Under the pieces are notes generated by a model. It saw only the letters and a program-made list of their open reading frames with translations. It was not told where the DNA came from and made no database searches. This document shows positions 11,808-34,525 of a DNA stretch of 48,393 nt, in pieces. The stretch comes from a virus (lineage: Duplodnaviria > Heunggongvirae > Uroviricota > Caudoviricetes). Position numbers and translations under genes: made by a program. The stretch lies in IMG/VR virus record IMGVR_UViG_2671181055_000011; one strand, 5' to 3'. Numbering within the stretch: position 1 is the stretch's first letter; each line of letters starts with the position of its first letter.

Positions 11808-11945
11808 ACGTTACTAGATCAAAGAGCATTAGTTCATATGTAAATTGACATTTTTCTGGCACAGGGGAGAGCTAGCGTGGTTGTCCGCTTTGTGCCAATA
11901 GCGGACATTGCTGGCTCATGGTATGTTAGTTTAAGGAGGCAGGTT

Positions 11946-12968
11946 ATGCCCTGTATTTCGCTGTGGTATAATAGTTGCGCAATTGATACAAGGGAGCGTT
12001 ACATCGTGAAAATTGTTTTCGAGGTTAATGGAAAGAAAGTTCCACTAAAATCTTTAAAATACATAAGCAAAAAAGATCAACTCGAAGTAATGAAAAACTG
12101 GTTCTTTGAAAACTTTGAAGATCCGGCAAATGCTTGTCCGTATGAAAGTAGAGAAGGTGGCTATGCTTACATATATGGCGGGCCGTATGATGCGAGCGAA
12201 GAACTACAATCCATCTTCGGTCAATATGTTAAATCTGAGTATATTGAGGAATTAGTAGATGAATTACAAACACAATGTTTTGACTGGTCTGGAAACTCAA
12301 ATAATATAGATGATTGGTACGATGATGATATCTACGACGCTGTAACGTCTTCCGGTAATCCGTATTTAAAATTCATTGATAATATCGATAAAATAAAAAA
12401 ACTTGCAAAAGATAAAACTGAACAACAGCAAAAAAACCACTTGCTTAGTTTGCTCTACACGAATGTTATTACAGCTTTGGAAACGCTTTATGTTGAGCTA
12501 TTCATTAATTCTATAGAGAAAGATGATGTCTACATAGCCAATTGTATAGAAAAAGGTAAGACTGAATTTAAAGTAAGCAAAGATATTGCTGCGTTGCCTT
12601 TCAAGGGTGAACCCATCGAGAAAATTAGGGGAGAGCTAATCAGGTCAATCAAGGAACACTTGATCAGTGCAAGCTGGCATAGCACTAAAAAGGTAATCGA
12701 CCGCTATGAAGCTACATTCGATATAAAAGTACAAAAAGACTGTCCGATAGAAGCTATTGAATTGGCAACCCTCAATCGAAATCACTTAGTGCATCGTGGT
12801 GGAAAGGATAAAGAAGGGAACCTCGTAGTGATTACAGACCAGGATCTTGAAACGCTGATTGAAAATGCATCGAACCTGGCAATTATGCTCTACAACAGTT
12901 TAAATGTAGCAACGAATAAAACCACCATTTTGCAACCAGATGACAAACCGTTCATTCATGAATTTTAA
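11946..12968 (+). CDS. AT-rich accessory protein with C-terminal RNxxxH (HEPN-like) motif; candidate Abi/RNase-type effector
   Basis: AAGGAGG RBS (11933-11939) 6 nt before ATG 11946; motif R-N-H-L-V-H encoded at 12777-12794; a 100-nt sample (12006-12105) is 29% G+C by my count versus roughly 50% in flanking phage genes. Confidence 0.6.
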   Translation: MPCISLWYNSCAIDTRERYIVKIVFEVNGKKVPLKSLKYISKKDQLEVMKNWFFENFEDPANACPYESREGGYAYIYGGPYDASEELQSIFGQYVKSEYIEELVDELQTQCFDWSGNSNNIDDWYDDDIYDAVTSSGNPYLKFIDNIDKIKKLAKDKTEQQQKNHLLSLLYTNVITALETLYVELFINSIEKDDVYIANCIEKGKTEFKVSKDIAALPFKGEPIEKIRGELIRSIKEHLISASWHSTKKVIDRYEATFDIKVQKDCPIEAIELATLNRNHLVHRGGKDKEGNLVVITDQDLETLIENASNLAIMLYNSLNVATNKTTILQPDDKPFIHEF

Positions 12969-12983
12969 TAGCGCAGGTCATAC

Positions 12984-13985
12984 ATGGATATTCGCACACG
13001 AAAGACAAAATTTTTAGAGTCGTTAGATTCAACTGAAGTGATACGCAAAGCAGTAAGTCTCGCTATAGATTGCATTATTGATAATCATAATAGTAATGAA
13101 GATACCCCCTTAGTTATTACCAGCTATGATGATCTCTGTAGAATCCAGGTGCTAAATTATGTACAGGAGTTTTGCGAAGCTGCATTCCCTGATATGGATG
13201 AATATTACTTTAGTCCTAACATACTTCGCATCAACGGCAAGACTAGTGAAGAAGCTTGTATTAACTTAATTAAACTCTTAAGAAGTACAAAAGGCATGCT
13301 ATTCTGGTCCGATGCCCCATCGTGGTTCGCTAGCCTCCCCGACGGATTATTCCATGTTGTTAACATTGATCAAAAAATCGTTACTCGCGGCCTTAATAAG
13401 AAAAACTCTAAGCCGACAATAATCAATAAAGATTACAGTGTAGATACACTACTATCAGAGCTATTTTTGAATGGCGCACACATGGAGCAACCCAACGTAC
13501 ACAACGTTTCTGAGGGAAACATGAAGTTCTATGATGAATGCCATGCTGGATTAATCAGACCAATACCCGCTCCAATAGGCGCGTCATACGATGAAGAGAT
13601 CACAATTAATTCTCCAGATTGGCAAAAGCTCGCGTGTGTAGCTTTACGCCGCTATCAGTCGAAGGAATGTCATGACGGAATGCAATGGGATACAACCGAT
13701 CATGGTTGGACTGATGTAATCGCGTATCCATTCGTCGAAGAAATACAATCAATGGATAATAGTGGTTATCGACAATGTTTAGTTGGGCTGGTCACAATAA
13801 ACAATTCAAATGCAAATTCTCCGTACCTATCTACCGTTTGGATACATCCATTTTATCGCAGGAGAGGGTTATTAAGTAAGTTATGGCCAAAATTACAAGA
13901 GTTATATGGAAGTAACTTCGAAATTGAGCGACCTAATGAAAATATGAAAGCATTTCTGAAAAGTGCGAAACACGCAGATTACTAA
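12984..13985 (+). CDS. AT-rich accessory protein with C-terminal GNAT-like acetyltransferase motif
   Basis: Starts 15 nt after previous stop (operon); motif VWIHPFYRRRGLLSKLW resembles GNAT motif A (V-x-P-x-Y-R/Q-x-x-G-x-G/A). Confidence 0.6.
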   Translation: MDIRTRKTKFLESLDSTEVIRKAVSLAIDCIIDNHNSNEDTPLVITSYDDLCRIQVLNYVQEFCEAAFPDMDEYYFSPNILRINGKTSEEACINLIKLLRSTKGMLFWSDAPSWFASLPDGLFHVVNIDQKIVTRGLNKKNSKPTIINKDYSVDTLLSELFLNGAHMEQPNVHNVSEGNMKFYDECHAGLIRPIPAPIGASYDEEITINSPDWQKLACVALRRYQSKECHDGMQWDTTDHGWTDVIAYPFVEEIQSMDNSGYRQCLVGLVTINNSNANSPYLSTVWIHPFYRRRGLLSKLWPKLQELYGSNFEIERPNENMKAFLKSAKHADY

Positions 13986-19456: not shown

Positions 19457-19672
19457 ATGAAATCCATGGACAAAATTTCAACAGGCATTGCCTACGGCAC
19501 CTCCGCAGGCAGTGCTGGCTACTGGTTTTTACAGTTGCTCGATAGAGTAACTCCGTCACAGTGGGCTGCAATCGGTGTGCTGGGTAGTCTGGTATTTGGC
19601 CTGCTGACGTACCTGACAAACCTTTATTTCAAGATTAAAGAAGATAAGCGCAAGGCTGCGAGAGGTGAATAA
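19457..19672 (+). CDS. Class II holin/pinholin (S21-like, 71 aa) with dual-start motif MKSMDK
   Basis: Translation matches recalled phage 21 S pinholin; GGAGGTGAGG RBS; second ATG at 19466. Confidence 0.85.
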
Positions 19673-20169
19673 TGCCTCCATCATTACGAAAAGTCGTTGC
19701 TGCTGCTATTGGTGGCGGAGCAATTGCTATAGCATCAGTGTTAATCACTGGCCCAAGTGGTAACGATGGTCTGGAAGGTGTCAGCTACATACCATACAAA
19801 GATATTGTTGGTGTATGGACTGTATGTCACGGGCATACAGGAAAAGACATCANNNNNNNNNNNNNNNNNNNNNNNNNNNNNNNNNNNNNNNNNNNNNNNN
19901 NNNNNNNNNNNNNNNNNNNNNNNNNNNNNNNNNNNNNNNNNNNNNNNNNNNNNNNNNNNNNNNNNNNNNNNNNNNNNNNNNNNNNNNNNNNNNNNNNNNN
20001 NNNNNNNNNNNNNNNNNNNNNNNNNNNNNNNNNNNNNNNNNNNNNNNNNNNNNNNNNNNNNNNNNNNNNNNNNNNNNNNNNNNNNNNNNNNNNNNNNNNN
20101 NNGCAATGGAAAGGTCTCATGACTCGTCGTGAGATTGAGCGTGAAATCTGTTTGTGGGGTCAGCAATGA
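19672..20169 (+). CDS. SAR endolysin (R21-like lysozyme); middle masked by N-run 19853-20102
   Basis: N-terminal Gly/Ala-rich SAR segment [18 protein letters not shown]; start overlaps holin stop; stop overlaps Rz start (ATGA). Confidence 0.8.
19853..20102. other. Run of 250 N inside endolysin gene
   Basis: Literal n characters. Confidence 1.
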
Positions 20170-22225: not shown

Positions 22226-22362
22226 TATATGGCTGATTTATAATTGTGAGTTTAATATTATGTTGACTCACTCATTGATCCAATACCTAACTTTACCAGC
22301 AACACCTCCGCCCCCAGTAGCACTGGCTGCTGGGGTGCGTTTTATTCATAAAGCAAGGCTGT

Positions 22363-23151
22363 ATGAGCGAGAAATTAAAGATAGTCTATCGCCCATTACA
22401 AGAATTGTCACCGTATGCGCACAACGCCAGGACGCACAGTACTGAGCAGGTGGCACAACTGGTAGAAAGTATTAAGCAATTCGGCTGGACTAATCCGGTG
22501 CTGATTGACGAAAAGGGCGAAATTATTGCGGGTCACGGTCGTGTTATGGCGGCTGAAATGCTCAAAATGGATTCTGTTCCGGTCATTGTTCTGTCTGGCC
22601 TGACGGATGAGCAGAAAAAGGCGTACCGCCTGGCAGATAATCGCCTGCCGATGAATGCTGGCTGGGATGAAGATCTGTTGCGGATGGAGCTGTCGGACCT
22701 AATCAATGCTGATTTTGATGTCTCCCTGACAGGCTTCATCCCGGCAGAAATTGATGAACTGTTGACGGATGTTTTGCCCGGTACAGGAAATGAGGAGGAG
22801 CCGTATACGACGAAAATTGATACGCCTGTTTATGAGCCGTCAGGCGGTAAACCGGATATCAGTGAACTGTACGACGATACGAAAACTCAGGAGCTGATCA
22901 GCCGGATACGTTCGGCGTCCCTTGATCCTGATATTGAGAAATTCCTCCTGTGTGCAGCAGAACGTCACACGGTGTTTAATTTCAGCAGAATTGCGGACTA
23001 TTACGCTCATGCCCCCGCTGAAATTCAGTGCCTTTTCGAGGAGTCGGCGCTGGTGATCATTGATTATCAGCAGGCTATTGAAAATGGATTTGTCCGAATG
23101 ACGCAGCGCATGGTGGAGATCATGCATGGCGGGGAGGAGGAATATGCGTGA
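22363..23151 (+). CDS. ParB-like nuclease domain protein (ParB/Srx N-terminal domain)
   Basis: Motif NPVLIDEKGEIIAGHGR typical of ParB N-terminal domain; position corresponds to K-12 ynaK remnant. Confidence 0.7.
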   Translation: MSEKLKIVYRPLQELSPYAHNARTHSTEQVAQLVESIKQFGWTNPVLIDEKGEIIAGHGRVMAAEMLKMDSVPVIVLSGLTDEQKKAYRLADNRLPMNAGWDEDLLRMELSDLINADFDVSLTGFIPAEIDELLTDVLPGTGNEEEPYTTKIDTPVYEPSGGKPDISELYDDTKTQELISRIRSASLDPDIEKFLLCAAERHTVFNFSRIADYYAHAPAEIQCLFEESALVIIDYQQAIENGFVRMTQRMVEIMHGGEEEYA

Positions 23152-24076
23152 TGATTTTTGCGCCTTTATTCTGACTCACGGGCGACCGGACAAAGTTCTG
23201 ACTTACCGGACGTTGCGTCGTGCTGGCTATACCGGGAAAATTTTTATCGTTGTTGATGATGAAGATAAGACACGGCATCAGTACATGGCTGAATTTGGTG
23301 AACAGGTGCTGGTATTTTCCAAAGCCGATATTGCTAGTCGTTTTGACGAAGCCGATAATTTTAGTGACCGCCGCTCAATTTTTTACGCCCGTAATGCCTG
23401 TTTCGACCAGGCAAAACTGGTCGGGTGTAAATACTTCATTCAGCTCGATGATGATTATCACGAGTTCCAGTTTCGGGTGGATCGCAACTATGACCAGGCC
23501 TATTTCCCGATAAGGAAACTGGATGAGATCCTTTCTGAAATGCTTGCGTACTACGAATCAATACCTGCTCTTTCCATCGCTATGTCGCAGGGCGGGGATT
23601 TTCTTGGTGACAATGGCGGCCATGCTTCGTGGGTGAAACGCAAGGCAATGAACAGCTTTATCTGTTCGGTTGATCGACCGTTCTCATTCATGGGGCGCAT
23701 TAACGAGGATGTGAATACGTACACGAATCTCGGTCGCTGTGGTGAATTGTTTATGACGATCGGTGCTGTCCAGTTAGGGCAGAAACAGACGCAGAAAAAC
23801 AGCGGCGGAATGACCGAGCTGTATCTGGATTCCGGAACCTACGTTAAAAGTTTTTACTCCGTCATGTATGCGCCGTCGTGCGTAAAAATCTCACTTATGG
23901 GTGCCAGTCATAAACGCATTCACCATCAGGTCACCTGGAACAACGCTGCAGTAAAAATCCTTCACGAAAAATACAGGAAGAAGACACCCTGCATATCAAT
24001 GGGGGTGACAAATGATTCCGTATTCGAAAGTCGAGTCTCTGGCAGCGTGCCGGATGACTGCACAACAAATCGCTGA
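23144..24076 (+). CDS. Putative GT-A-fold glycosyltransferase-like protein (310 aa from ATG 23144; ORF extends to 23126)
   Basis: GGGGAGGAGG RBS; ATG overlaps upstream stop (ATGCGTGA); motifs THGRPDK, IFIVVDDEDKT and QLDDDY in GT2-like spacing. Confidence 0.45.
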   Translation: MRDDFCAFILTHGRPDKVLTYRTLRRAGYTGKIFIVVDDEDKTRHQYMAEFGEQVLVFSKADIASRFDEADNFSDRRSIFYARNACFDQAKLVGCKYFIQLDDDYHEFQFRVDRNYDQAYFPIRKLDEILSEMLAYYESIPALSIAMSQGGDFLGDNGGHASWVKRKAMNSFICSVDRPFSFMGRINEDVNTYTNLGRCGELFMTIGAVQLGQKQTQKNSGGMTELYLDSGTYVKSFYSVMYAPSCVKISLMGASHKRIHHQVTWNNAAVKILHEKYRKKTPCISMGVTNDSVFESRVSGSVPDDCTTNR

Positions 24077-24263
24077 CGTTCTGGATGTTGATCTGAACCG
24101 ACTGAAAGAAAATCGGGAAGCAATGACAGATTTTTATGCGGCCATCCGTAAGGGCAGAGCGAAAGGTGAAGCCGAGTTACGAGCGGCATTGTTTAAGCTT
24201 GCCAGAAAAGGGGATGCCTTTGCTCTGCGCGAACTACTCAGGGTGGATAAAAATCAGGACTAA
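24012..24263 (+). CDS. Possible small HTH protein preceding terminase small subunit
   Basis: HTH-like MTAQQIADVLDVDLNRL; overlaps the upstream ORF by 65 nt so one of the two annotations may be wrong at this end. Confidence 0.3.
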   Translation: MIPYSKVESLAACRMTAQQIADVLDVDLNRLKENREAMTDFYAAIRKGRAKGEAELRAALFKLARKGDAFALRELLRVDKNQD

Positions 24264-24266
24264 CTG

Positions 24267-25361
24267 ATGAGCAGACCGGACTGGGGGGCGTTGCAGCAGG
24301 AGTATATTGCTGAATACACCCGCTCCGGTATATCTCCGGTGGCATGGTGTGAAGCAAGGGGACTGAATTACGCAACAGCCCGTCGTTACATCAAAAAAAC
24401 TCCGAAAAATGCGCAGACAGAAATGTGCAAAACTGCGCAAAAAAGTGCGCAGAAAAAATCTGCGCAGACTGCACAAAAGCGGAACGAAAAATCTCAGGAA
24501 AAAAAGCCAGTATTCGATGCGGGCCTGAATGAGGGCGACGCGGAGGAATTTTCGTTCTGTCCCGATGAATTCGGCATTTCTGACCAGCAGGCTAAGTTTG
24601 CGATGCTTGTTGCTCAGGGTAAAAAGCCGACAGAGGCGTACCGACTAGCCGGTTATGAGGGGCAAGGTGCGACAGCTAACAGCAACGCCAGTCGTATGCT
24701 TAGAAATGCCAGGGTTTTTCGCGCTATCAGCTACTTCCGCAATCAGTACCAGAAACGCTATACCGCAGACCTGGATTTACTAGTGAGTCAGTTGATGGCT
24801 ATTGTCCTGGCCGACCCCAATCAGCTTGCACAATTTCGCCGTGTTAACTGCCGTTATTGCTGGGGCGAGAATCATCTCTACCAGTGGCGCGATATAGCAG
24901 AATTCGACAAGGCAGCGGCGCAGGCTTCCAGAGATGGCAAACCCGAACCGGAATATGGAGGCCTCGGCTTTGTTGATAACGCCATACCCAATCCGGACTG
25001 CCCGAAGTGCTGCGGTGAGGGAACGGGACAGCTTTATATGGCTGATACCACTCTGCTTGATGGGGATGCGCGGCAATTATATGCAGGGGCAAAATTCGGA
25101 AAATTCGGCGTTGAGATCCTGCTGGAGGATAAGGCTGCCGCCCGGCGTGAATTGTTGCGTTTGTTTTCTGCTGGCGGGGCTTTATGTGCAGATAAGCGGC
25201 TACGGGAACTGGAAATTGAACGGCGCAGAATGGAAAACCAGAAGCTGCGCAAAGAGATCGAAACGGTGGAAGATAATGAACATCCCCAGCCTGTGGCGAT
25301 CAATATTAATGTGGTTGATGCCAGAGTAAGGAGTGATGAAGATGATCTCTCCGACGCTTAA
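24267..25361 (+). CDS. Terminase small subunit (putative)
   Basis: Immediately upstream of and overlapping terminase large subunit; N-terminal HTH-like region; Cys pairs. Confidence 0.6.
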   Translation: MSRPDWGALQQEYIAEYTRSGISPVAWCEARGLNYATARRYIKKTPKNAQTEMCKTAQKSAQKKSAQTAQKRNEKSQEKKPVFDAGLNEGDAEEFSFCPDEFGISDQQAKFAMLVAQGKKPTEAYRLAGYEGQGATANSNASRMLRNARVFRAISYFRNQYQKRYTADLDLLVSQLMAIVLADPNQLAQFRRVNCRYCWGENHLYQWRDIAEFDKAAAQASRDGKPEPEYGGLGFVDNAIPNPDCPKCCGEGTGQLYMADTTLLDGDARQLYAGAKFGKFGVEILLEDKAAARRELLRLFSAGGALCADKRLRELEIERRRMENQKLRKEIETVEDNEHPQPVAININVVDARVRSDEDDLSDA

Positions 25362-26643
25362 TGTGCCTCAGGCGCGATTTCTTTCAATGCCCCATAAATT
25401 TAAAGCCTATATTGCTGGTTTTGGCTCGGGCAAAACATGGGTTGGGTGTGGCGGCATATGCAAGGGGATTTGGGAGCATCCAGGTATAAATCAGGGATAT
25501 TTTGCGCCAACGTATCCCCAAATTCGCGATATTTTTTACCCTACAGTGGAAGAAGTTGCTGCTGACTGGGGATTGAACGTAAAAATTAATGAGGGAAATA
25601 AAGAGGTTCACTTTTATTACGGACGCCAGTATCGGGGAACCACTATCTGCAGATCGATGGAGAAGCCACAAACGATCGTCGGTTTCAAAATTGGTAATGC
25701 GTTGGTGGATGAACTGGACATTTTGCCGAAGGAAAAAGCCAGAACGGCGTGGCGCAAGATAATTGCACGTATGCGTTATAAGATTGATGGACTTCGCAAC
25801 GGTATTGACGTTACAACCACGCCGGAAGGATTCAAATTTGTCTACGAGCAGTTTGTTAAAGCCGTGCGTGAAAAAACAGAGCTGGCCTCACTGTATGGTC
25901 TGGTGCAGGCATCTACTTTCGATAATGAAAAGAACCTGCCAGCAGATTACATTCCTTCGCTTCTTGAATCATACCCTCCAGAGCTGATTAAAGCCTATCT
26001 TCGAGGACAGTTTACTAACCTGACAAGTGGTACTGTTTACCATCAGTTTGACCGGAAACTGAATAATTGCGAAGAAGTGGAGCAGCCAGGGGAGCCGATT
26101 TATATTGGGATGGATTTTAACGTTGGAAAGATGGCGGGAATCGTCCATGTGCTGCGTTTGGGGCTTCCATGTGCGGTAACTGAAATCATCAATGCCTACG
26201 ATACGCCGGATATGATCCGCATCATTAAAGAACGCTTCTGGCTGTATGATGGGAATGATTACCGGAAAGTGAGGGAAATTTATATTTATCCAGATGCTTC
26301 CGGGGATTCCAGAAAATCAAGTAACGCAAGTACGACGGATATAGCCCAGCTTAAGCAGGCTGGTTTTAACGTTGTGGTGAACAGCTCGAACCCGCCAGTA
26401 AAAGATCGCGTTAACTCAATGAATGCAATGTTCTGCAATGCCAATGGTGAGCGTCGCTATAAAGTTAATGTGAAGCGTTGCCCGTTATATGCCGAATCTC
26501 TGGAGCAACAGGTCTGGGATGAGAAGGGGGAGCCTGATAAAAAATCTGGCAATGATCACCCGAATGATGCCGGAGGTTATTTCATCGTTAAGCAATTCCC
26601 TATTGTCAAACCGACCGGAAGAGTCACATCACTTCGGATTTAA
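25336..26643 (+). CDS. Terminase large subunit (ATPase/nuclease)
   Basis: Walker A-like YIAGFGSGKT; TAAGGAG RBS; followed by portal. Confidence 0.85.
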   Translation: MKMISPTLNVPQARFLSMPHKFKAYIAGFGSGKTWVGCGGICKGIWEHPGINQGYFAPTYPQIRDIFYPTVEEVAADWGLNVKINEGNKEVHFYYGRQYRGTTICRSMEKPQTIVGFKIGNALVDELDILPKEKARTAWRKIIARMRYKIDGLRNGIDVTTTPEGFKFVYEQFVKAVREKTELASLYGLVQASTFDNEKNLPADYIPSLLESYPPELIKAYLRGQFTNLTSGTVYHQFDRKLNNCEEVEQPGEPIYIGMDFNVGKMAGIVHVLRLGLPCAVTEIINAYDTPDMIRIIKERFWLYDGNDYRKVREIYIYPDASGDSRKSSNASTTDIAQLKQAGFNVVVNSSNPPVKDRVNSMNAMFCNANGERRYKVNVKRCPLYAESLEQQVWDEKGEPDKKSGNDHPNDAGGYFIVKQFPIVKPTGRVTSLRI

Positions 26644-26645
26644 TT

Positions 26646-28052
26646 ATGGCTGATATATCAACACCCAACCTCGACTATAACGATATGCTGGAGGCGTGGG
26701 ATATTAACGACGCACTGATGGGCGGTACGCTTGAAATGCGCAGGCAGGGGGAAAATTATCTCCCAAAATGGCCTAACGAAGATGAAGACGCTTATAAAAA
26801 ACGCCTGTCTGTGGCTACGCTACTTCCTGTGTATGAAGAAAGCATCAAGCAAAATATTGGGCGCATATTTGCAGAGCCGACAGTATTGAGTGAGGAAACG
26901 CCGGCAAAAATCAGGGAATATGCAGAAAATATCGACATGGAGGGGAGCCGACTGGATGTGTGGGCGCAGCAATTTTTCAGCCTCGCATTTCAGTATGGTG
27001 TGGCACATGCGCTGGTGGACTATCCACGAACGGATATGAAAGAGATTCGGACAAAAGCCGATGAAAACGCGACCGGTGGTCGTCCGTACGTTACGATGCT
27101 GAATCCACGCCAGGTTATTGGATGGAAATCGAAAGTTGAAAAAGGGAAAGTTGTTCTCACTGATTTGCGTATAAAAGAGGTCATCATTATTGATGGTGAT
27201 GATTTCGGGCAGAAGAAGGTGGAGCAGATCCGCCATATTATGCCCCGTCGAGTTGAAATTTATCGACGTAGCGAAGGCACTAATGGCGAATCTGTCTGGA
27301 CGCTTCATGAGTCATGGAATACCAGCCGTGATGATATTCCTCTGGTAACACTGTACACGAAGAAAACAGGATTTATGCGTGGTACACCGCCATTGCTTAA
27401 TCTTGGCTTGCTGAATATCAAGCACTGGCAAAGCCAGAGCGAGCAGGACAATATTCTTCATGTTGCCCGCGTTCCATTGCTGGTGGCCTACGGGCTGGAC
27501 AGGAATGAAGAACTGACGGTTGGTGCATCCACCGCTACGATTTTTGAGGACAGAACAAAAAATGGCCTCGAATATGTTGAACATAGTGGCGCAGCGATAG
27601 AATCTGGCGAAACATCACTTGAGAAGCTGGAAAATCAGATGCGTCATGCCGGCGCTAAACTTCTGCGTGCTGAAAATACATCCACCAAATCTGTTGATCA
27701 GACTAATGAAGAGCGAATGCAGGAAAACTCGCCGCTTTATACAATGGCGAACTCCCTCGAAGATGCCCTCGATAATATTCTCCAGATAATGGCGGAATGG
27801 ATCGGAGAGAGTTGCGGTGGCAATGTGGATGTGCGCACTGAACTGGATGTATCTGCCCAGGTGTTTGACTCATCCTCCGCGCTGGCTGTTCAGTCATTGC
27901 GTCAGGGCGGTGATATACGTCAGATTGATGCGGTTCGGGTGTTGCAGGCGTTGAAATTTATCGATCAGGATTCCCGTCCAGAGGAAGTGATCGATGAATT
28001 AAAAAATCAGAGTGTAATGCTGATGGAAATCAATGATGCAAACCGTGAATGA
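26646..28052 (+). CDS. Portal protein
   Basis: 468-aa ORF directly after terminase large subunit. Confidence 0.75.
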   Translation: MADISTPNLDYNDMLEAWDINDALMGGTLEMRRQGENYLPKWPNEDEDAYKKRLSVATLLPVYEESIKQNIGRIFAEPTVLSEETPAKIREYAENIDMEGSRLDVWAQQFFSLAFQYGVAHALVDYPRTDMKEIRTKADENATGGRPYVTMLNPRQVIGWKSKVEKGKVVLTDLRIKEVIIIDGDDFGQKKVEQIRHIMPRRVEIYRRSEGTNGESVWTLHESWNTSRDDIPLVTLYTKKTGFMRGTPPLLNLGLLNIKHWQSQSEQDNILHVARVPLLVAYGLDRNEELTVGASTATIFEDRTKNGLEYVEHSGAAIESGETSLEKLENQMRHAGAKLLRAENTSTKSVDQTNEERMQENSPLYTMANSLEDALDNILQIMAEWIGESCGGNVDVRTELDVSAQVFDSSSALAVQSLRQGGDIRQIDAVRVLQALKFIDQDSRPEEVIDELKNQSVMLMEINDANRE

Positions 28053-29148
28053 ACGGCTGCGTGATGAATCAATTGCTCATGCAGTCTGGATATCCCGCTA
28101 TAGCACTGGCGTGGCTGCCAGAATGGTGAAAATACTGAATGACAGCGATGCGGAACTTACTGCTCGCCTGCTGATAGCACTGGACAGCCTCGATCCAGGT
28201 AGTTTTACCGTTAAGCGCCTGGAGTCACTTCTGGCGAGCGTCAGAGAGGTTAACCGCACTGCTATTAACAGCATGTTTACCAGTCTCTCCGGAGAGCTGA
28301 ACGAGCTGGCAATTTATGAGGCTGGTTATCAGTTAAGTCTGTTTGATTCTATGCTACCTGATTTTGTTGCTGATGTTCACCCTCTGGTTGGTATCTCTCC
28401 TGATGCACTTTATGCCGCTGCAATGGCGCGACCATTCCAGGGACGACTGCTCAGTGAGTGGGCCTCAGATCTTGAGGCGGATCGGCTCAGACGCATAACA
28501 AATACAGTGCGTCAGGGTTTTTTGCTGGGGGATACCAATGAGCAGATCGCAAGAAAAATTCGGGGACATGTCAGTAAGGGATTTCAGGATGGTGCATTGC
28601 AGATGAGCCGGGCTAATGCGGCCAGCATTGCAAAAACAGCGGTTGGACATCTTGCTGCTACTGCCCGTGAGAGTTTTGCCAGCGCGAATAATGATTTGAT
28701 TAAGGGTAAGCAATGGTTATCAACGCTTGATAATCGTACTACGCCACAATGTCGAATCAGGGATCGCCTCAAATATACGCTGAATAATAAACCTGTAGGT
28801 CACAGCGTGCCTTATTTGCAGGGGCCGGGAAAAATTCATTTCTGCTGCCGCTCAACGGAAACGTTCATTCTGAAATCAGCGAAGGAACTGGGTATTGATG
28901 TTCGCGATATTTCCCCGGCTGAGCGGGCCAGCATGGATGGCGTGGTGGCCGGAGATACAACCTACAGGGAATGGTTTTTGCGTCAGCCTTACACCAGACA
29001 AAAACAGATTGTGGGGGAAAGCCGAGCAAAGCTGATTCGGGATGGTGGTATGTCGCCAGATGAATTTTACACCGATAAAGGCGAATGGCTGACGCTGAAG
29101 CAGCTCCGTGAGCGTGATGCACAGGTATTCAGAAAAGCAGGGATTTAA
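28033..29148 (+). CDS. Head morphogenesis (minor head) protein
   Basis: Position after portal, overlapping its 3' end. Confidence 0.55.
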   Translation: MMQTVNERLRDESIAHAVWISRYSTGVAARMVKILNDSDAELTARLLIALDSLDPGSFTVKRLESLLASVREVNRTAINSMFTSLSGELNELAIYEAGYQLSLFDSMLPDFVADVHPLVGISPDALYAAAMARPFQGRLLSEWASDLEADRLRRITNTVRQGFLLGDTNEQIARKIRGHVSKGFQDGALQMSRANAASIAKTAVGHLAATARESFASANNDLIKGKQWLSTLDNRTTPQCRIRDRLKYTLNNKPVGHSVPYLQGPGKIHFCCRSTETFILKSAKELGIDVRDISPAERASMDGVVAGDTTYREWFLRQPYTRQKQIVGESRAKLIRDGGMSPDEFYTDKGEWLTLKQLRERDAQVFRKAGI

Positions 29149-29252
29149 ATAAATCATTTATTACAACAGGCTACCTTCGGGTGGCCTTTTTTATTGCTGC
29201 GATCCGGATGGTGAGCAGCGTAACTGTCGGAAGACTTAAACCAGGTACTAAT

Positions 29253-30017
29253 ATGAAACTGAAAACGGTCGAGATTAACGGAAAACAATACGCAGAAATT
29301 GATACTGCTGGCCTGCCAGTTTATGTGCACGACGATGGTAAAGAAATTGGCTTCGATGCACCGCTGGCGACAAAAAAAATTACAGAGCTTAATGGCGAGG
29401 CAAAAAATCATCGCCTGGCTAAAGAAGCTGCAGAGGAAAAACTGGCTAAGTTTGCCGCTATCGAAGACCCGAAGAAGGCGATCGAGGCACTGGAAATGCT
29501 GTCAAAAATCGACCAGAAAAAGCTGCTCGATGCGGGACAGGTTGACCAGGTTAAGGCAGAAATTACGAAAAATTTTCAGCAGCAATTAGATGAAGAAAAG
29601 CAACGCTCTCAGATGCTGGAGAAGCAGCTTTACGATTCTATGATTGGCGGTAGTTTTGCGGGTTCAAAATATATTGCCGATAAAATTGCGATTCCGGCAG
29701 ATTTATTACAAGCCCGCTTCGGGCAGGCATTCAAAGTGGAAGAAGGGAGGATCGTTGCTTATGACGCTTCCGGCAACAAAATTTATTCCCGCGCGAAGCC
29801 TGGCGAACTGGCGCAGTTTGATGAGGCGCTGGAGTTCCTTGTCGAAAATTACCCTCAGAAAGACTACATCCTGAAAGCCAGTGGCAACAATGGCGGCGGC
29901 TCCCGTCCGACACAGCATGATATTGGTCAGAAAACGATGAAACGCTCTGCTTTTGATGCACTGGATGTTGCAGGTAAGCAAAACGCATTGAAAGACGGTA
30001 TCACAATCGTTGATTAA
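29253..30017 (+). CDS. Putative scaffolding protein (start at MKLKTVEING; ORF extends to 29181)
   Basis: Charged, coiled-coil-rich ORF immediately upstream of major capsid gene. Confidence 0.5.
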   Translation: MKLKTVEINGKQYAEIDTAGLPVYVHDDGKEIGFDAPLATKKITELNGEAKNHRLAKEAAEEKLAKFAAIEDPKKAIEALEMLSKIDQKKLLDAGQVDQVKAEITKNFQQQLDEEKQRSQMLEKQLYDSMIGGSFAGSKYIADKIAIPADLLQARFGQAFKVEEGRIVAYDASGNKIYSRAKPGELAQFDEALEFLVENYPQKDYILKASGNNGGGSRPTQHDIGQKTMKRSAFDALDVAGKQNALKDGITIVD

Positions 30018-30115
30018 CACATTTGTCAGCTTCCGGATGGGAGCTGGTGTCAGGGCTGGATAGCTCATTACTCCATCTATTCACAATTACGCAAATTTTT
30101 AAGGAATATTTAATT

Positions 30116-31255
30116 ATGGCTGGAAATACCCTGACCGGGTTGATCCCGACTATTTATACCGCCCTGGATGTTGTATCCCGTGAGCAGGTAGGTTTTATCC
30201 CTGCGGTAGCAAAAAACGCAAAAGCTGACGCCGCAGCAAAAGATCAGACGGTAACCGCGCCAGTTGCGCCTGAGGCGAAAACCGAAGATATCGTACCGGG
30301 GCCGTCAGCTCCGAATACCGGTGATCAAAATATTGGCACTGTTGATGTAAAAATTACTAAATCCAAAATGGCACCGGTTAAATGGAATGGTGAAGAACAA
30401 CTGGCTCTTGGCCCTTCAGGGACTTACAACACCATTCTGGCTGATCAGTTCAAGCAGGCTTTTCGCGCCCTTGCAAACGAGGTTGAGGCTGATCTTGGTG
30501 CGTTGTATTTCGGTGCTTCCCGCGCCGTGGGAACCGCAGGGACAACGCCGTTTGGTGTTAAAGATGATCTTTCTGATGCTGCTCTGGCTCGTCAGGTTCT
30601 GGAGGATAACGGCGCACCGACAACCGATCTGCAGATGGTGCTTGGCTCCACTGCCATTGCTAATTTGCGCGGAAAACAGTCTGTATTGTTTAAAGTGAAT
30701 GAATCCGGCACTGAACAGCTACTGCGTGAGGGCGTGTTGGGGCGTCTGGAGGGATTCAATATTCACAGTTCGGCAGGTGTGAAACGAGCGCCAAAGGTTG
30801 CTGCAACTGGTTATCTCGTGAATGGAGAGAAAAAAGAAGGCGATGTTCTTATTTCCATTGATACTGGTTCGGGGAGTATTTCTGCAGGTCAGATTGTTAC
30901 GTTCGCTGGTGATCCGAATCAGTATGTTGTGGCAGCAGCGACCAGCAATCTGATTACTCTTGCAGCGCCCGGACTGCGTCAGGATCTGGCCGATGATACT
31001 GCCATCACAGTTGTTGGGGCCTTTACTGCAAATATGGCGTTTGATCGCAACGCGTTTCTGCTGGCATCCCGTACTCCGGCAATGCCGGAAGGTGGCGATA
31101 ATGCTGATGATGTAATGAATGTTACGGACCCGATTTCAGGGATTACGTTCCAGATTGCACTGTATCGTCAGTATCGCCAGGTGCGCTATGAAGTTGGACT
31201 GGCATGGGGTGTTTCATCAGTGAAGCCGGCACATGGTTGTCTGATTCTTGGTTAA
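30116..31255 (+). CDS. Major capsid protein (start at MAGNTLTGL)
   Basis: AAGGAA RBS; about 380 aa; followed by a strong terminator; position after scaffold. Confidence 0.7.
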   Translation: MAGNTLTGLIPTIYTALDVVSREQVGFIPAVAKNAKADAAAKDQTVTAPVAPEAKTEDIVPGPSAPNTGDQNIGTVDVKITKSKMAPVKWNGEEQLALGPSGTYNTILADQFKQAFRALANEVEADLGALYFGASRAVGTAGTTPFGVKDDLSDAALARQVLEDNGAPTTDLQMVLGSTAIANLRGKQSVLFKVNESGTEQLLREGVLGRLEGFNIHSSAGVKRAPKVAATGYLVNGEKKEGDVLISIDTGSGSISAGQIVTFAGDPNQYVVAAATSNLITLAAPGLRQDLADDTAITVVGAFTANMAFDRNAFLLASRTPAMPEGGDNADDVMNVTDPISGITFQIALYRQYRQVRYEVGLAWGVSSVKPAHGCLILG

Positions 31256-31265
31256 ACATTCAAAC

Positions 31266-31285
31266 GGGGCTTCGGCCCCATTTTT
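31266..31285 (+). terminator. Intrinsic terminator after major capsid gene (ggggc-ttcg-gcccc plus T-run)
   Basis: GC stem with UUCG-type tetraloop and 5-T tail. Confidence 0.6.
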
Positions 31286-31297
31286 AATGGGGGGCAT

Positions 31298-31474
31298 ATG
31301 GCCGGATTAACTAAAGAGCAAAGAGCACAGCGTGAAGCCGCACAAAAAACGCAAATTGAGTTAGTGGTTATGGTGACCGATTATCAGATGTTTCCCGGCG
31401 CACCAACTATCGCTAATGTTCATCCTGATGAAGTTGACAACTGGAAGGCTATGGGCTGGAAAACTCAGGAGTAA
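31298..31474 (+). CDS. Small hypothetical protein (58 aa), not in ORF track
   Basis: ATG 31298 to TAA 31472-31474 translated by hand (MAGLTKEQRAQREAAQKTQ...); fills gap between capsid terminator and next gene. Confidence 0.35.
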   Translation: MAGLTKEQRAQREAAQKTQIELVVMVTDYQMFPGAPTIANVHPDEVDNWKAMGWKTQE

Positions 31475-31477
31475 CAC

Positions 31478-31873
31478 ATGATCACTTACGTGACCTGTGA
31501 TGACGTTGATAATGCGTTTGGGAACGCCTGGACGAGTGAGAACGCTAAAAATAAAGCTGTTTTAATGGCTAATGCCTGGCTTAATGGCTTCAACCTGAAA
31601 ATTAACCCATCCCGTATTCCGGAAGAGGTAAAACTTGCGGGAGCATATGCAGCCAGAATTGCCTCATTCGGTAAGTTGTTTCAGCAGAAAAATGATTCTG
31701 GCGTTGTTATCAGTAAAGCCGTGTCGGCTGACGGGGTCAGTGTATCGAAATCATTTTCTGAGTTGCCAGCAAACAGCACTGCATTGCTTGAACCCGATTT
31801 ACAGCTTGCGATAGCACTGCTGAAACCGTACGGACTTAGTCGCTCACAAGTCAGGGTTGTGAGGGGGGGATAA
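31478..31873 (+). CDS. Head-tail connector/completion protein (putative)
   Basis: First of four tightly packed 126-131-aa ORFs between capsid and major tail genes. Confidence 0.5.
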   Translation: MITYVTCDDVDNAFGNAWTSENAKNKAVLMANAWLNGFNLKINPSRIPEEVKLAGAYAARIASFGKLFQQKNDSGVVISKAVSADGVSVSKSFSELPANSTALLEPDLQLAIALLKPYGLSRSQVRVVRGG

Positions 31874-32256
31874 TGGGGCTTCGTGAAGAGATTCAGTCAG
31901 AGGTTGCCGCTGCTTTTGATGAGGATTTAGCGGACGCCGTGAGTGATTTTTCTGGTTCTTACGTTACGCACCGGCACTGGGATCCTGTGACGGAAACTGG
32001 CGGCGAATCAACCGCAATCTATACCGGGCGAGGCGTGTTGACACGTTATAAGCTGGGCAGAATTGATGGGATTAATATTTTGCATGGTGACCTTAAATTA
32101 ACCGCTCTGGTATGCGAGGTTACGGATAAACCAGCTGTCGACCATATTATTGAGATTTATGATCCTGTATCAAGGCAGTTACAACGATACGAGGTAATTA
32201 CAGCAAGTGTAGATCCTTCCGCATCAGTTTACTCTATCCAGTTAAGGAGAGCGTAA
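31873..32256 (+). CDS. Head-tail connector/completion protein (putative)
   Basis: Start overlaps upstream stop; size and position. Confidence 0.5.
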   Translation: MGLREEIQSEVAAAFDEDLADAVSDFSGSYVTHRHWDPVTETGGESTAIYTGRGVLTRYKLGRIDGINILHGDLKLTALVCEVTDKPAVDHIIEIYDPVSRQLQRYEVITASVDPSASVYSIQLRRA

Positions 32257-32637
32257 ATGGCAAAGGCATGGGATATAGAACCGTCAATATTTGCCGGGAT
32301 GATTGAGGAAGATGTAGGGCTGAAGATTCGCTACATCGCTATGCAGATTCTTACTGCTATTGATATTGCTGCTCCGGTTGATACCGGACGTTTCAGAAAT
32401 AACAACCTGGTGTCGTTACAGCATCCCGATTTTGGTATATCTGATAACGTGGATCCGAACGGTACGATTGCTGTTCAGCGTGGGATCGGGGTTATTTCGA
32501 AAGCTGCAAATTACGGGGTTATTTATATCCAGAATAACCTTCCTTATGCAGAGGCTCTTGAAAACGGTCATTCACAACAAGCGCCAACTGGCGTGTATGC
32601 CAACGCTTTTCATGGTGTTTTACAGGCTTACAAATGA
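32257..32637 (+). CDS. Tail completion/head-tail joining protein (putative)
   Basis: Size and position. Confidence 0.5.
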   Translation: MAKAWDIEPSIFAGMIEEDVGLKIRYIAMQILTAIDIAAPVDTGRFRNNNLVSLQHPDFGISDNVDPNGTIAVQRGIGVISKAANYGVIYIQNNLPYAEALENGHSQQAPTGVYANAFHGVLQAYK

Positions 32638-33026
32638 AGTTTACTGAAATCAGAAATACGGTTATTTCCAGAATGACGGCACAGACGATTATTGATGGAA
32701 AAGACGTATTGTATCCGAACGGGCCAACGTTCGATCCTTCCGGTAAGTTAATCTGGGCGCGGTTAAGTAATATTCCCGGGCAGGCTGGAGTTAATGAAAT
32801 TGGCGCGGGGCCGGTTGTTTATCGCACGGGGATAATCATTATTCAGTTATTTGTCCCCGCAGGTTCTGGTTCAAAACTCATTACTGAGACAGCCGATAAA
32901 TTGCGGGAACTGTTTGAGTTTCAGGATGACGATCGTCTCAGTTACCAGGCTGTTTCCTCAATAGCCGTTGGCGAAAAGAATGGCTGGTTCCAGCTTAATC
33001 TTCAAATTCCATATCGCGCGCTCTAG
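32634..33026 (+). CDS. Tail terminator/completion protein (putative)
   Basis: Start overlaps upstream stop; size and position immediately before major tail gene. Confidence 0.5.
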   Translation: MKFTEIRNTVISRMTAQTIIDGKDVLYPNGPTFDPSGKLIWARLSNIPGQAGVNEIGAGPVVYRTGIIIIQLFVPAGSGSKLITETADKLRELFEFQDDDRLSYQAVSSIAVGEKNGWFQLNLQIPYRAL

Positions 33027-33052
33027 CGCAATTAATGACATAGGAGGCTCCT

Positions 33053-34015
33053 GTGAGTTCAGGTGCAAAGGTTATCTCGGCATTTATCCGGGAGACGGTT
33101 GCAGGCACTACGCCAGCAAGTGGTGACTGGAGTTTATTAAAACGCACAAGCTGGGGAGTAAAACCCACCCAGAATAAAGGCGAAAATAATGAGATTGGTG
33201 GCTCCCGGATGGCTCAGGGGGCGACGCCTGGCACTGTGGATGTCGGCGGTGATGTTGGTACCAAATTTCGCTGGGGTCAACATGATGATTTTCTTGCATC
33301 CTGTTTCGGCGCGGAATGGTCAGGCGATTCTCTGACAATGGGGAATGAGCGAATAACATTTTCTCTGGCGACCTATGCGTCCGATGTCGGAATTGCCTCT
33401 GTCGTCAGAGGAGCGCAGGTTGGCTCATGGAAAATGCAGATCCCTAACGACGGCGATATTACAGCGACCGTAACCTTTGCCGGACTGGACTGGGAATCAA
33501 AGGCCGATGATACGAATTTTATCAAAGGCGAACCTGTGGATAGTGCAGGAAAGCTACGTTATTCGTTTAAGGAGGTTTCAGCAGTAAGCCTGAATGGTGT
33601 TGCCGGAGGTAACGGTTTTTGTATCGACAGTTTTGATATTCAGTTCGATAACAAACTCCAGACACAGCGTTGTATCGGGACTGGCTCGCCTTATGCAGGA
33701 GCAAATATTCCGACTACTTTTACACCGTCCGGTACGGTGACGCTTTCATGGTCTAAAGCCGCGTGGGAAATCTGGAGTAAAACACTGACTGGAGAAACAG
33801 TTCCGTTCAGCTTCACGCTTTCGAATGGAGAGGGGGCATACACTTTCAGTTTCCCGAAGGTTCAGGTGTCAGGTGAATGGCCTGATGGGGGTAATAGCGA
33901 CATTATCCAGGTTCAATTGAGCATTACCGCAGCAGATGAAGCACCTACGATAACCAGAAAAAAAAATTCCCCGGCTGCCGTGATCGCAAAAGCCAGTGCT
34001 GAGGCGATTAGTTGA
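33053..34015 (+). CDS. Major tail (tube) protein
   Basis: 320-aa ORF directly upstream of G/GT chaperone pair and tape measure. Confidence 0.65.
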   Translation: MSSGAKVISAFIRETVAGTTPASGDWSLLKRTSWGVKPTQNKGENNEIGGSRMAQGATPGTVDVGGDVGTKFRWGQHDDFLASCFGAEWSGDSLTMGNERITFSLATYASDVGIASVVRGAQVGSWKMQIPNDGDITATVTFAGLDWESKADDTNFIKGEPVDSAGKLRYSFKEVSAVSLNGVAGGNGFCIDSFDIQFDNKLQTQRCIGTGSPYAGANIPTTFTPSGTVTLSWSKAAWEIWSKTLTGETVPFSFTLSNGEGAYTFSFPKVQVSGEWPDGGNSDIIQVQLSITAADEAPTITRKKNSPAAVIAKASAEAIS

Positions 34016-34063
34016 TTTTCCGTTATTCCTCCTGTGGTACTGCCCTACAGGGGGACGCATTGA

Positions 34064-34525
34064 ATGAGGTTATGGATGTTTATTCTTAATCAGAAAATTA
34101 TCATTGGTGGAGAACGCTGGTTTACGCCAATGAAGGACTTAAAACCTGTAGACGGGTTAAAACTGTTGGTGGCAAGCAGCGATAACGATCAGTATCGCTC
34201 CCGTAATGCATTAATCCGTCGCCACATTGAGAAAATGGATGCCAGTTTGCACGTCGGAACGAAGGAGTTTGATATTTCAAAGGTTTCCGAGGTGGATTCT
34301 GTTGATGATTTACTCATTGATAATGCCGCTCGTTATCTGCTGAAAGACTGGAAAGGGGTTGGTGAACTGGTTAATGGTGTTGAGGTTGCACTGGAATATA
34401 CGGCAGAACGAGGGATCGCGCTGCTTAAGCAGAATCCAGAGTTGTACTGGCAGATCCTTGCAGAAGCAGCCAGCATCGCCCAGGGTAAAGAGCAGCAGAA
34501 GCAGGATACGATAAAAAAGCCATAG
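34064..34525 (+). CDS. Tail assembly chaperone G
   Basis: Ends just after slippery heptamer A_AAA_AAG (34513-34519); followed by -1 frame extension. Confidence 0.7.
   Translation: MRLWMFILNQKIIIGGERWFTPMKDLKPVDGLKLLVASSDNDQYRSRNALIRRHIEKMDASLHVGTKEFDISKVSEVDSVDDLLIDNAARYLLKDWKGVGELVNGVEVALEYTAERGIALLKQNPELYWQILAEAASIAQGKEQQKQDTIKKP

Follow-up and report, generated by a model that had tools for sequence, protein, structure and literature searches.

A ParB-fold protein and a TAGT-family glycosyltransferase encoded as an overlapping pair ahead of the terminase genes of a Rac-like Escherichia coli prophage

The gene pair in the window

A pair of overlapping genes was analyzed that lies in a DNA stretch of 48,393 nucleotides (nt) from a Rac-like Escherichia coli prophage (IMGVR_UViG_2671181055_000011); the whole stretch is called the window in the following. 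The upstream gene is a full-length ynaK and encodes a protein of 262 amino acids (aa) with a ParB/Srx-fold N-terminal domain (N-domain), a linker and a C-terminal domain (CTD). The downstream gene encodes a glycosyltransferase of 310 aa, which belongs to the TET-Associated Glycosyltransferase (TAGT) family, and it is followed by the genes for the small and the large terminase subunit (TerS and TerL). The locus contains the following features:

22312..22335, plus strand: terminator-like hairpin with T-run, 3' of the trkG moron and 27 nt ahead of the ParB gene start
22363..23151, plus strand: full-length ynaK, the 262-aa partner (ParB/Srx N-domain, linker, CTD)
22363..22782, plus strand: ParB/Srx-fold N-domain, residues 1-140
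22804..22839, plus strand: linear motif YTTKIDTPVYEP, residues 148-159, in the linker, which is predicted to be disordered
22858..23127, plus strand: helical CTD, residues about 166-255, with AAxRHxVFxF..IAxYYA..SALVIID
23133..23140, plus strand: Shine-Dalgarno motif GGAGGAGG of the glycosyltransferase gene, within the 3' end of the ParB gene
23144..23151, plus strand: overlap ATGCGTGA of 8 nt between the glycosyltransferase start and the ParB stop
23144..24076, plus strand: TAGT-family GT-A glycosyltransferase, 310 aa, named 'GREB1-related protein' by PGAP
24012..24263, plus strand: open reading frame (ORF) of 83 aa with a partial small-terminase-like match (phrog_309)
24267..25361, plus strand: TerS, small terminase subunit (Terminase_2; phrog_51)
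25333..26643, plus strand: TerL, large terminase subunit (Terminase_6N and 6C)

The glycosyltransferase frame is open from position 23126, and the ATG at 23144 with its strong Shine-Dalgarno motif gives the protein of 310 aa. In the overlap this ATG is situated one codon 5' of the TGA and shares no bases with it, unlike in an ATGA arrangement. At the other end, the 3' tail of the glycosyltransferase gene (24010-24076) overlaps the next ORF, which starts at 24012, by 65 nt. The original prediction for this region had described a ParB/Srx-type protein with the motif GEIIAGHGR, the stop of which overlaps the ATG of a translationally coupled 310-aa protein upstream of the terminase. The ORF, the motif (residues 52-60), the overlap and the position ahead of the terminase genes were all recovered, and the overlap together with its retention in other genomes (see below) supports translational coupling.

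The gene upstream of the pair is trkG (TrkH family in Pfam). A promoter scan revealed no signal that exceeded the shuffled expectation, and because of the terminator-like hairpin before the ParB start, late transcription would need read-through. The 2-kb pair region was 100% identical in several E. coli chromosomes, and at least 867 of the 5,426 complete E. coli genomes contained at least 80% of it. Both genes are under purifying selection (dN/dS = 0.08-0.17 among the E. coli alleles). In RefSeq the gene products are named 'ynaK: ParB/Srx family N-terminal domain-containing protein' and 'GREB1-related protein'. In one RefSeq genome (NZ_CP058571.1; 20064-20321 of locus L001) PGAP has called the intact ParB gene of 262 codons a 258-bp pseudogene 'missing C-terminus', apparently because the ynaK fragment of K-12 was taken as reference, and the intact gene is thus under-annotated in some RefSeq genomes.

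Next, the 310-aa protein was analyzed. It is a TAGT member by profile, fold and motifs. Residues 8-222 matched Pfam PF20691 with an E value of 3.7e-34 (118.9 bits, cut-off 27.5), and the match to PHROG 842 had an E value of 7.5e-104. An exhaustive HMMER search for TAGT homologues yielded 1,323 clusters (50% identity) at a threshold of E <= 1e-3, of which 491 remained at E <= 1e-30. The TAGT family was reportedly defined by Iyer et al. in 2013. It is a GT-A group and has been described as a sister to GT2 (PMC13216743). The GT-A class of the original prediction was thus borne out, whereas the assignment to GT2 itself did not hold. In the AlphaFold (AF2) model of the enzyme, residues 1-180 were confident, with pLDDT values mostly above 90, and the top Foldseek matches in the PDB were all GT-A enzymes (ColGalT1, RmlT, GnT-I, glycogenin and SpsA; E values from 2e-4). 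The fold check that had been proposed for the protein therefore placed the confident half of the model exclusively among GT-A enzymes. A sequence search of the PDB with the TAGT profile gave no meaningful match, i.e., no solved structure is a sequence relative.

The three motifs that had been picked from the protein, THGRPDK (residue 11), IFIVVDDEDKT (residue 33) and QLDDDY (residue 100), were all found, and they include the TAGT-invariant residues R14, D41 and DDD102-104. Further residues that were invariant in the enzyme alignments are D68/D71/N72, YAR81-83, the complete DDDY102-105, Q149/G151/D152, RK166-167, NEDV187-190, TQ216-217 and R258/H260/H261. The active-site motifs R...DDD...ED are common to the 5-hydroxymethylcytosine (5hmC) GT-A phage glycosyltransferases and the trypanosome base-J glucosyltransferase JGT (Pyle et al., bioRxiv 10.1101/2023.12.21.572611), and in the E. 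coli enzyme they are represented by R14, DDD102-104 and NEDV187-190 (alignments A1, A2 and A4). A conserved C-terminal region (residues about 216-261) lies outside of the Pfam model. The E. coli enzyme is about 22 residues longer than its relatives of about 288 aa, and this C-terminal extension is E. coli-specific and not conserved. The median net charge of the enzyme family is +5. PADLOC and NCBIfam searches gave no match for the enzyme, and thus it is not a listed defence gene.

Conservation of the cassette and features of the partner

A total of 168 loci was collected, and each ORF was scored for enzyme, ParB N-domain and CTD with hidden Markov models (HMMs). The hosts include Proteobacteria, Firmicutes, Actinobacteria and Bacteroidota, and the cassette was also present in a haloarchaeal virus. 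Enzyme homologues with 40-47% identity are encoded by the Lactobacillus phages phi jlb1 (genes 024/025), c5, LL-Ku, phiLdb and Ld17, by the Nocardia phage NTR1 (Orf1/Orf2) and by the haloarchaeal virus HHTV-2 (genes 21/22), and Porphyromonas phages contain the pair at 27% identity. In all of these viruses the enzyme gene starts within the end of a ParB-like gene. More generally, an overlap of 4-23 nt was retained in 56 of the 62 non-redundant loci (8 nt in 22 and 11 nt in 18 of them), and in practically every locus with upstream sequence the ORF that carries the CTD ended at the enzyme start. At locus L109 the two are naturally fused to one polypeptide of 522 aa (ParB_N-CTD-TAGT), and the junction is exactly at the usual overlap site. 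In about a dozen loci the ParB N-domain was absent, and the partner consisted of the CTD alone (123-150 aa). The obligate, conserved part of the partner in this TAGT subfamily is thus the CTD, to which a ParB N-domain is frequently added. Hosts and viruses with unrelated envelopes and virions have kept the enzyme at 40-47% identity, which favours a universal substrate, e.g., DNA.

Long TAGT homologues were considered as candidates for additional ParB-TAGT fusions, but the N-terminal extensions of P0268, P0281, P0270, P0304 and P0315 were not ParB. The C-terminal extensions of long homologues were methyl- or sulfotransferases.

The ParB/Srx fold of the partner's N-domain was found both by HMM match and by fold. 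The 262-aa protein matched ParB_N (PF02195 in Pfam) with 29.3 bits (cut-off 26.3) and PHROG 620 with an E value of 1.7e-90. The Box II P-motif is GHGR (residues 57-60), and N21, R60 and N93 were invariant in the partner alignments A3 and A5. The similarity to partition proteins was lower: the score with TIGR00180 (partition ParB) was 38 and thus below the cut-off of 58, with an E value of only 1e-9 compared to 1.5e-38 for PADLOC MTase_II and 6e-51 for phrog_498 'DNA methyltransferase'. No ParA gene was found nearby in the window; parS sites were not searched for. In tblastn comparisons the N-domain shared 40-53% identity with phage DNA methylases at their N-termini and 38% with the Lactobacillus ParB-CTD partner. 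Judged by sequence similarity, DNA methyltransferase N-domains are much closer relatives of this domain than partition ParBs are.

The CTD had no Pfam family, and a fold search with it gave no match above noise. A profile search revealed that stand-alone CTDs are abundant and lack a Pfam annotation. The motif YTxKIxxPxYEP, which forms residues 148-159 in the window protein, is invariant in viruses that range from haloarchaeal to enterobacterial ones, and stand-alone CTD proteins are marked by it at their N-terminus. A membrane segment was absent from both proteins: the maximal 19-residue Kyte-Doolittle mean was 1.08 for the glycosyltransferase and 1.25 for the ParB protein, compared to 2.62 for the TrkG control. 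The membrane association of Gtr-type seroconversion glycosyltransferases was accordingly seen for neither protein.

Genomic context and proposed function

Several features of the genomic context point to DNA. In most of 66 non-redundant loci, TerL was encoded by one of the first two genes for proteins of at least 100 aa that follow the enzyme gene, and the TerL proteins belonged to five unrelated families (Terminase_6N in 24 loci, Terminase_3 in 23, TerL_ATPase in 4, T7-type in 4 and GpA in 1). Thus, the position ahead of the terminase is conserved independently of the packaging machine. Fusions of ParB_N with methyltransferases occupy the same slot directly ahead of terS/terL (Javan447, pOW20-A). 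Variants without the ParB N-domain had a different neighbourhood: a gene for a DNA polymerase III beta-type clamp adjoined five of the nine partners without ParB_N, but none of the 48 partners with ParB_N (Fisher p = 3e-5), and four of these five clamp genes were within 20 nt. Phage contigs of 56-198 kb showed the order DnaC-DnaB-primase-PolA-(clamp-like)-CTD-TAGT (one to five copies)-(cytidylyltransferase)-RecA, and in one of these large contigs (L176) clamp-loader genes lay further downstream. In the Vibrio phage pv27 the CTD and enzyme genes are flanked by primase/exonuclease and helicase genes. In addition, some cassettes contained sugar-tailoring neighbours or fusions, i.e., an NDP-sugar epimerase/dehydratase, a cytidylyltransferase, or a C-terminal methyltransferase or sulfotransferase, which by analogy resemble known DNA-glycan pathways.

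Four of the large contigs (L154 3673-10218, L175 8848-14559, L174 and L176) had, between the clamp-like gene and recA, a single stand-alone CTD gene with two to five TAGT paralogues in tandem behind it and then a cytidylyltransferase-like gene; these tandem arrays suggest the assembly of an oligosaccharide. A radical-SAM gene for a protein of about 318 aa was situated directly 3' of the TAGT gene in four non-redundant loci (including L135 7851-8804 and L131 7870-8826), and it could be responsible for an oxygen-independent base- or sugar-modifying step.

The closest functional parallel comes from ParB homologues without a DNA-binding domain, which activate phage T-dioxygenases on double-stranded DNA (dsDNA; O'Toole et al., PNAS 2026, PMC13229309). 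ParB176 was required for dioxygenase activity on dsDNA, mutations of nucleoside triphosphate (NTP)-binding residues did not markedly impair it, and no stable complex was trapped; the 5mYOX176/ParB176 loci were often near terminase genes, and the ParB acted as a cognate-specific activator (PMC13229309). As in that system, here a ParB homologue with N-domain and CTD, but without DNA-binding domain, is encoded beside the enzyme. Unlike there, the enzyme is a TAGT glycosyltransferase and not a 5mYOX dioxygenase, a dioxygenase is lacking, the CTD occurs on its own as well, and a ParB N-domain is not always part of the partner.

The beta-glucosyl-HMC-alpha-glucosyltransferase of T2/T6 acts on DNA (PMC13216743). 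The T2/T6 TAGT and the 5mYOX-associated GT-A DNA glycosyltransferases share the GT-A fold and the R...DDD...ED motifs with the E. coli enzyme, and the T2/T6 TAGT belongs to the same Pfam family. The tandem TAGT paralogues and sugar-tailoring neighbours are also a likeness to known DNA glycan pathways. The T-even TAGTs are too distant for detection by tblastn and act on pre-made glucosylated hydroxymethylcytosine. To our knowledge, they work without any CTD-type partner. The enzymes described here differ from them by the additional conserved C-terminal region, the obligate CTD partner and the lack of a hydroxymethyl-base pathway. A third parallel is given by the ParB_N-DNA methyltransferase fusions of temperate phages (phrog_498; MTase_II), with their similar N-domain and shared slot; in that case the catalytic module is fused and transfers a methyl group, whereas here a separate, coupled glycosyltransferase is connected via an adaptor domain. 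The alpha-glucosyltransferase of T4 works with the replisome and the gp45 clamp (PMC13216743), and the CTD-only variants adjoin clamp genes; however, the T4 enzyme is of the GT-B type without sequence relationship, and in the cassette the link to a clamp is one of gene adjacency. GREB1, from which the RefSeq name 'GREB1-related protein' is derived, has the TAGT catalytic domain in common with the enzyme, but is a large multidomain nuclear protein without a ParB/CTD partner.

Solitary TAGTs and ParB neighbours have already been highlighted by recent work. 'Solitary' TAGT homologues of unknown function were reported for 288 of 753 phages (NAR 2026 T4 paper), about 65% of the contigs with glycosyltransferases lacked a neighbouring base-modification enzyme and ParB-like and terminase genes were common neighbours (Pyle et al., 10.1101/2023.12.21.572611), and a 2025 PNAS survey described ParB-fold fusions to methyltransferases in prophages and a fold that can bind ATP, CTP or GTP. 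In the literature searched there was nothing specific on a characterized ParB-TAGT pair, on ynaK or on the 'GREB1-related' protein; PMC12373910 and PMC4351075 were followed as leads and turned out to be unrelated. The same literature held no account of the CTD as a TAGT partner, of the conserved overlap, the fusion or the alternation with the clamp, although the 2013 paper that defined TAGT may mention the ParB-TAGT linkage, and none of complete carrier genomes without any hydroxymethyl pathway.

From this context we propose, with moderate confidence, that the pair is a partner-dependent DNA glycosyltransferase that acts late in infection. We infer a transfer to DNA, a physical interaction of partner and enzyme, and a role of the N-domain in this activity. 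The 310-aa protein would be the GT-A catalytic subunit, which uses a nucleotide-sugar donor, and the 262-aa protein would be its dedicated partner. The acidic CTD and the YTxKIxxPxYEP linker probably dock onto the conserved C-terminal region of the enzyme and complete or regulate it. The ParB/Srx N-domain would couple the enzyme to DNA, perhaps in an NTP-dependent manner, and in large lytic phages without this domain the phage sliding clamp and the replisome appear to fill its role. Translational coupling would ensure co-production of partner and enzyme, and the placement at the head of the packaging operon would lead to modification of the DNA shortly before or during packaging. Tentatively, and with clear reservations, the proposal can be extended to the view that the CTD-TAGT cassette transfers sugar to DNA without a hydroxymethyl-pyrimidine, i.e., to one of the canonical bases, to the backbone or to an end of the DNA, with the ParB-fold module and the replicative sliding clamp as interchangeable couplers. 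The original prediction had left a choice between DNA and envelope modification; the context favours the former, and the lack of membrane segments in both proteins speaks against the latter.

A number of results weigh against the proposed DNA glycosyltransferase. Association with a TET/JBP (5mYOX) enzyme or another source of hydroxymethyl-pyrimidine, a contextual feature of TAGTs, was not observed. No TET/JBP dioxygenase, hydroxymethylase (including thymidylate-synthase-like ones) or cytosine C5-methyltransferase was found in the window (PGAP annotation plus Pfam searches of the unassigned early ORFs) or in the complete 38-kb genome of phi jlb1, and no such family was among the Pfam families matched by at least two of 150 upstream neighbours. 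Genes of these families were also absent within +/-10 kb in the metagenomic contexts. Thus, these phages do not supply the hydroxymethyl group, or the sugar attached to it, that normally serves as acceptor, and in the small phages a canonical DNA constituent or something that has so far not been recognized would have to take its place. We know of no description of a GT-A enzyme that transfers sugar to unmodified DNA. Furthermore, an acidic character is common to the partners of the whole family (median net charge of the CTD -12 and of ParB_N -10; window protein -24), and a helix-turn-helix (HTH) DNA-binding domain was found in it neither by Pfam nor in the model, which is a poor fit to a direct contact with DNA. 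The Porphyromonas, NTR1 and L109 homologues have lost the Box II arginine, so that an NTP-driven clamp is not universal. Due to the acidity and the loss of this arginine, a simple DNA-binding, sliding ParB clamp is not secure, and the partner may regulate or complete the enzyme instead, in a manner similar to ParB176. Lastly, the models had low confidence for residues 185-310 of the enzyme, although 216-261 belong to its best conserved part, and also for the partner's linker; this pattern would fit mutual folding of the two regions on binding.

Four other explanations have to be weighed. A protein could be the acceptor, either the partner itself, at Tyr/Thr of YTxKIxxPxYEP in a glycogenin-like priming reaction, or a packaging or replisome protein, with TAGT paralogues extending the glycan. 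The motif contributes two Tyr and one Thr to a linker for which disorder is predicted, the structural matches of the enzyme include glycogenin, the acidic partner is not DNA-binding in character, the arrays of two to five TAGT paralogues come with one CTD, and GREB1, an animal protein with a TAGT domain, has been reported to be a protein O-GlcNAc transferase. However, the six invariant residues of the motif resemble a docking epitope and not an acceptor site, the ParB_N module is common to DNA methyltransferases, the clamp and replisome context as well as the shared slot ahead of the terminase point to DNA, and DNA is the substrate of the characterized viral relatives. The spread from archaeal to bacterial viruses with unrelated terminases and capsids rules out a virion protein of one lineage as target. 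Glycosylation of a protein is thus considered unlikely, though it is the strongest of these alternatives. Classical glycosylation of 5hmC or 5-hydroxymethyluracil (5hmU) is improbable; the base would have to be made by an unrecognized enzyme or be present in other cellular DNA, e.g., that of a superinfecting T-even-type phage. All characterized TAGT or GT-A phage DNA glycosyltransferases do use a hydroxymethyl or a sugar hydroxyl group, phage-specific 5mYOX profiles retrieved thousands of contigs without a TET/JBP Pfam annotation (O'Toole et al.), and the radical-SAM genes following TAGT in four non-redundant loci make an anaerobic base functionalization possible in principle. Yet neither the window nor phi jlb1 contains an unassigned ORF of suitable size, and the pair is the only conserved unit among very different small genomes. 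The location in a late operon behind a terminator, due to which the pair is not obviously expressed in the lysogen, also does not fit to this explanation.

An acceptor that is a small molecule or a nucleotide, with a function in counter-defence or metabolism, would be in line with the nucleotide-binding or kinase-like members of the ParB/Srx fold, such as SerK, SbnI and sulfiredoxin. But ParB_N is dispensable in many loci, the P-motif arginine is often lost, the enzyme had no match in PADLOC, and the adjacency to clamp and replisome genes and the similarity to methyltransferase N-domains would be left unexplained, so that this possibility is regarded as quite improbable. The two genes might even be functionally unrelated, with a ParB for partition, nuclease activity or packaging and a glycosyltransferase moron that alters the envelope (seroconversion). 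The junction between lysis and terminase genes is a classical moron site, with trkG in the window and LT-II toxin genes at locus L004, and the PHROG label of the first gene is 'partition protein'. The obligate linkage, the conserved overlap and the natural fusion make this highly improbable, as do the lack of ParA and HTH, the lack of membrane segments in both proteins with a clear TrkG control, and the presence of the same pair in viruses of Gram-positive and Gram-negative bacteria and of archaea, the envelopes of which are unrelated.

The hypermodification of phage DNA has mostly been studied in lytic phages that make 5hmC or 5hmU first. In the present case, an enzyme of a DNA-glycosyltransferase lineage and a dedicated partner, which contributes an abundant domain without a Pfam family, are conserved in small temperate phages and an archaeal virus without a route to 5hmC or 5hmU. 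If the enzyme acts on DNA, an unrecognized modification would exist in a highly tractable system with K-12 as a natural deletion mutant, and restriction and anti-restriction, sequencing-based methylome calls and transduction would be affected. If the sugar is transferred to non-hydroxymethylated DNA, this would be an undescribed DNA modification in temperate bacterial phages, archaeal viruses and common E. coli prophages. The alternation of ParB_N and beta clamp is a testable idea for the 'orphan' ParB-fold modules of DNA-modifying enzymes, which were left open by the ParB papers of 2025-2026.

Deletions and additional observations at the locus

The K-12 chromosome matched the window up to position 22616 and resumed at 34174 (L002 4631/4630), which reveals a deletion of 11.6 kb (22617..34173). 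The deletion in the Rac prophage of K-12 extends from about codon 85 of the ParB gene to just ahead of ydaY, and the CTD, the glycosyltransferase, the terminase, the head and the tail-tube genes are lost. Thus, the pair is naturally knocked out in the K-12 and BL21 lineages. It had been proposed that ynaK and ydaY are the K-12 remnants of this region. This is true for ynaK, which consists of the first about 84 codons of the ParB gene, but ydaY is an intact gene of the tail module, which in undeleted prophages is located 3' of the tail-tube gene, and not a glycosyltransferase fragment.

Truncated ParB genes were also observed in other E. coli assemblies. At least eight different truncated ParBs were 98-99% identical up to ...GGKPD (residue 165) and then diverged, which corresponds to window positions of about 22837-22858 and codons 159-166. 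They continued into an out-of-frame TAGT gene, lom, a tail-fibre assembly gene, an NlpC/P60 tail gene, or into chromosomal sit, uspF or ompN sequences outside of the prophage. At locus L177 the DNA junction was directly after window position 22858, i.e., behind GGTAAACCGGATA. The right-hand ends all lay rightward, and complete genomes also showed other end points. The fixed left end and the variable right ends suggest a site-specific break, perhaps a terminase cut (pac/cos-type) with in-situ packaging.

The slot upstream of the pair, which is occupied by trkG in the window, was filled differently in Yersinia enterocolitica (JBLWET010000969.1; L004 2180-3332), where a moron with the genes for the A and B subunits of a heat-labile enterotoxin type II (Enterotoxin_a, LT-IIB) was found directly upstream of the ParB-TAGT pair; the sister contig L005 had no toxin genes. 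In the window itself, a masked run of N at about 19850-20100 lies inside the lysozyme gene (ORF 19672..20169), which is thus not fully readable. Two neighbouring ORFs in the early region, 11877..12968 (363 aa) and 12984..13985 (333 aa), had only weak Pfam matches (HEPN/RES N-terminal domain 1; GNAT acetyltransferase). They may represent a toxin or defence moron, and the second of the two ORFs was frameshifted in strain EC2.

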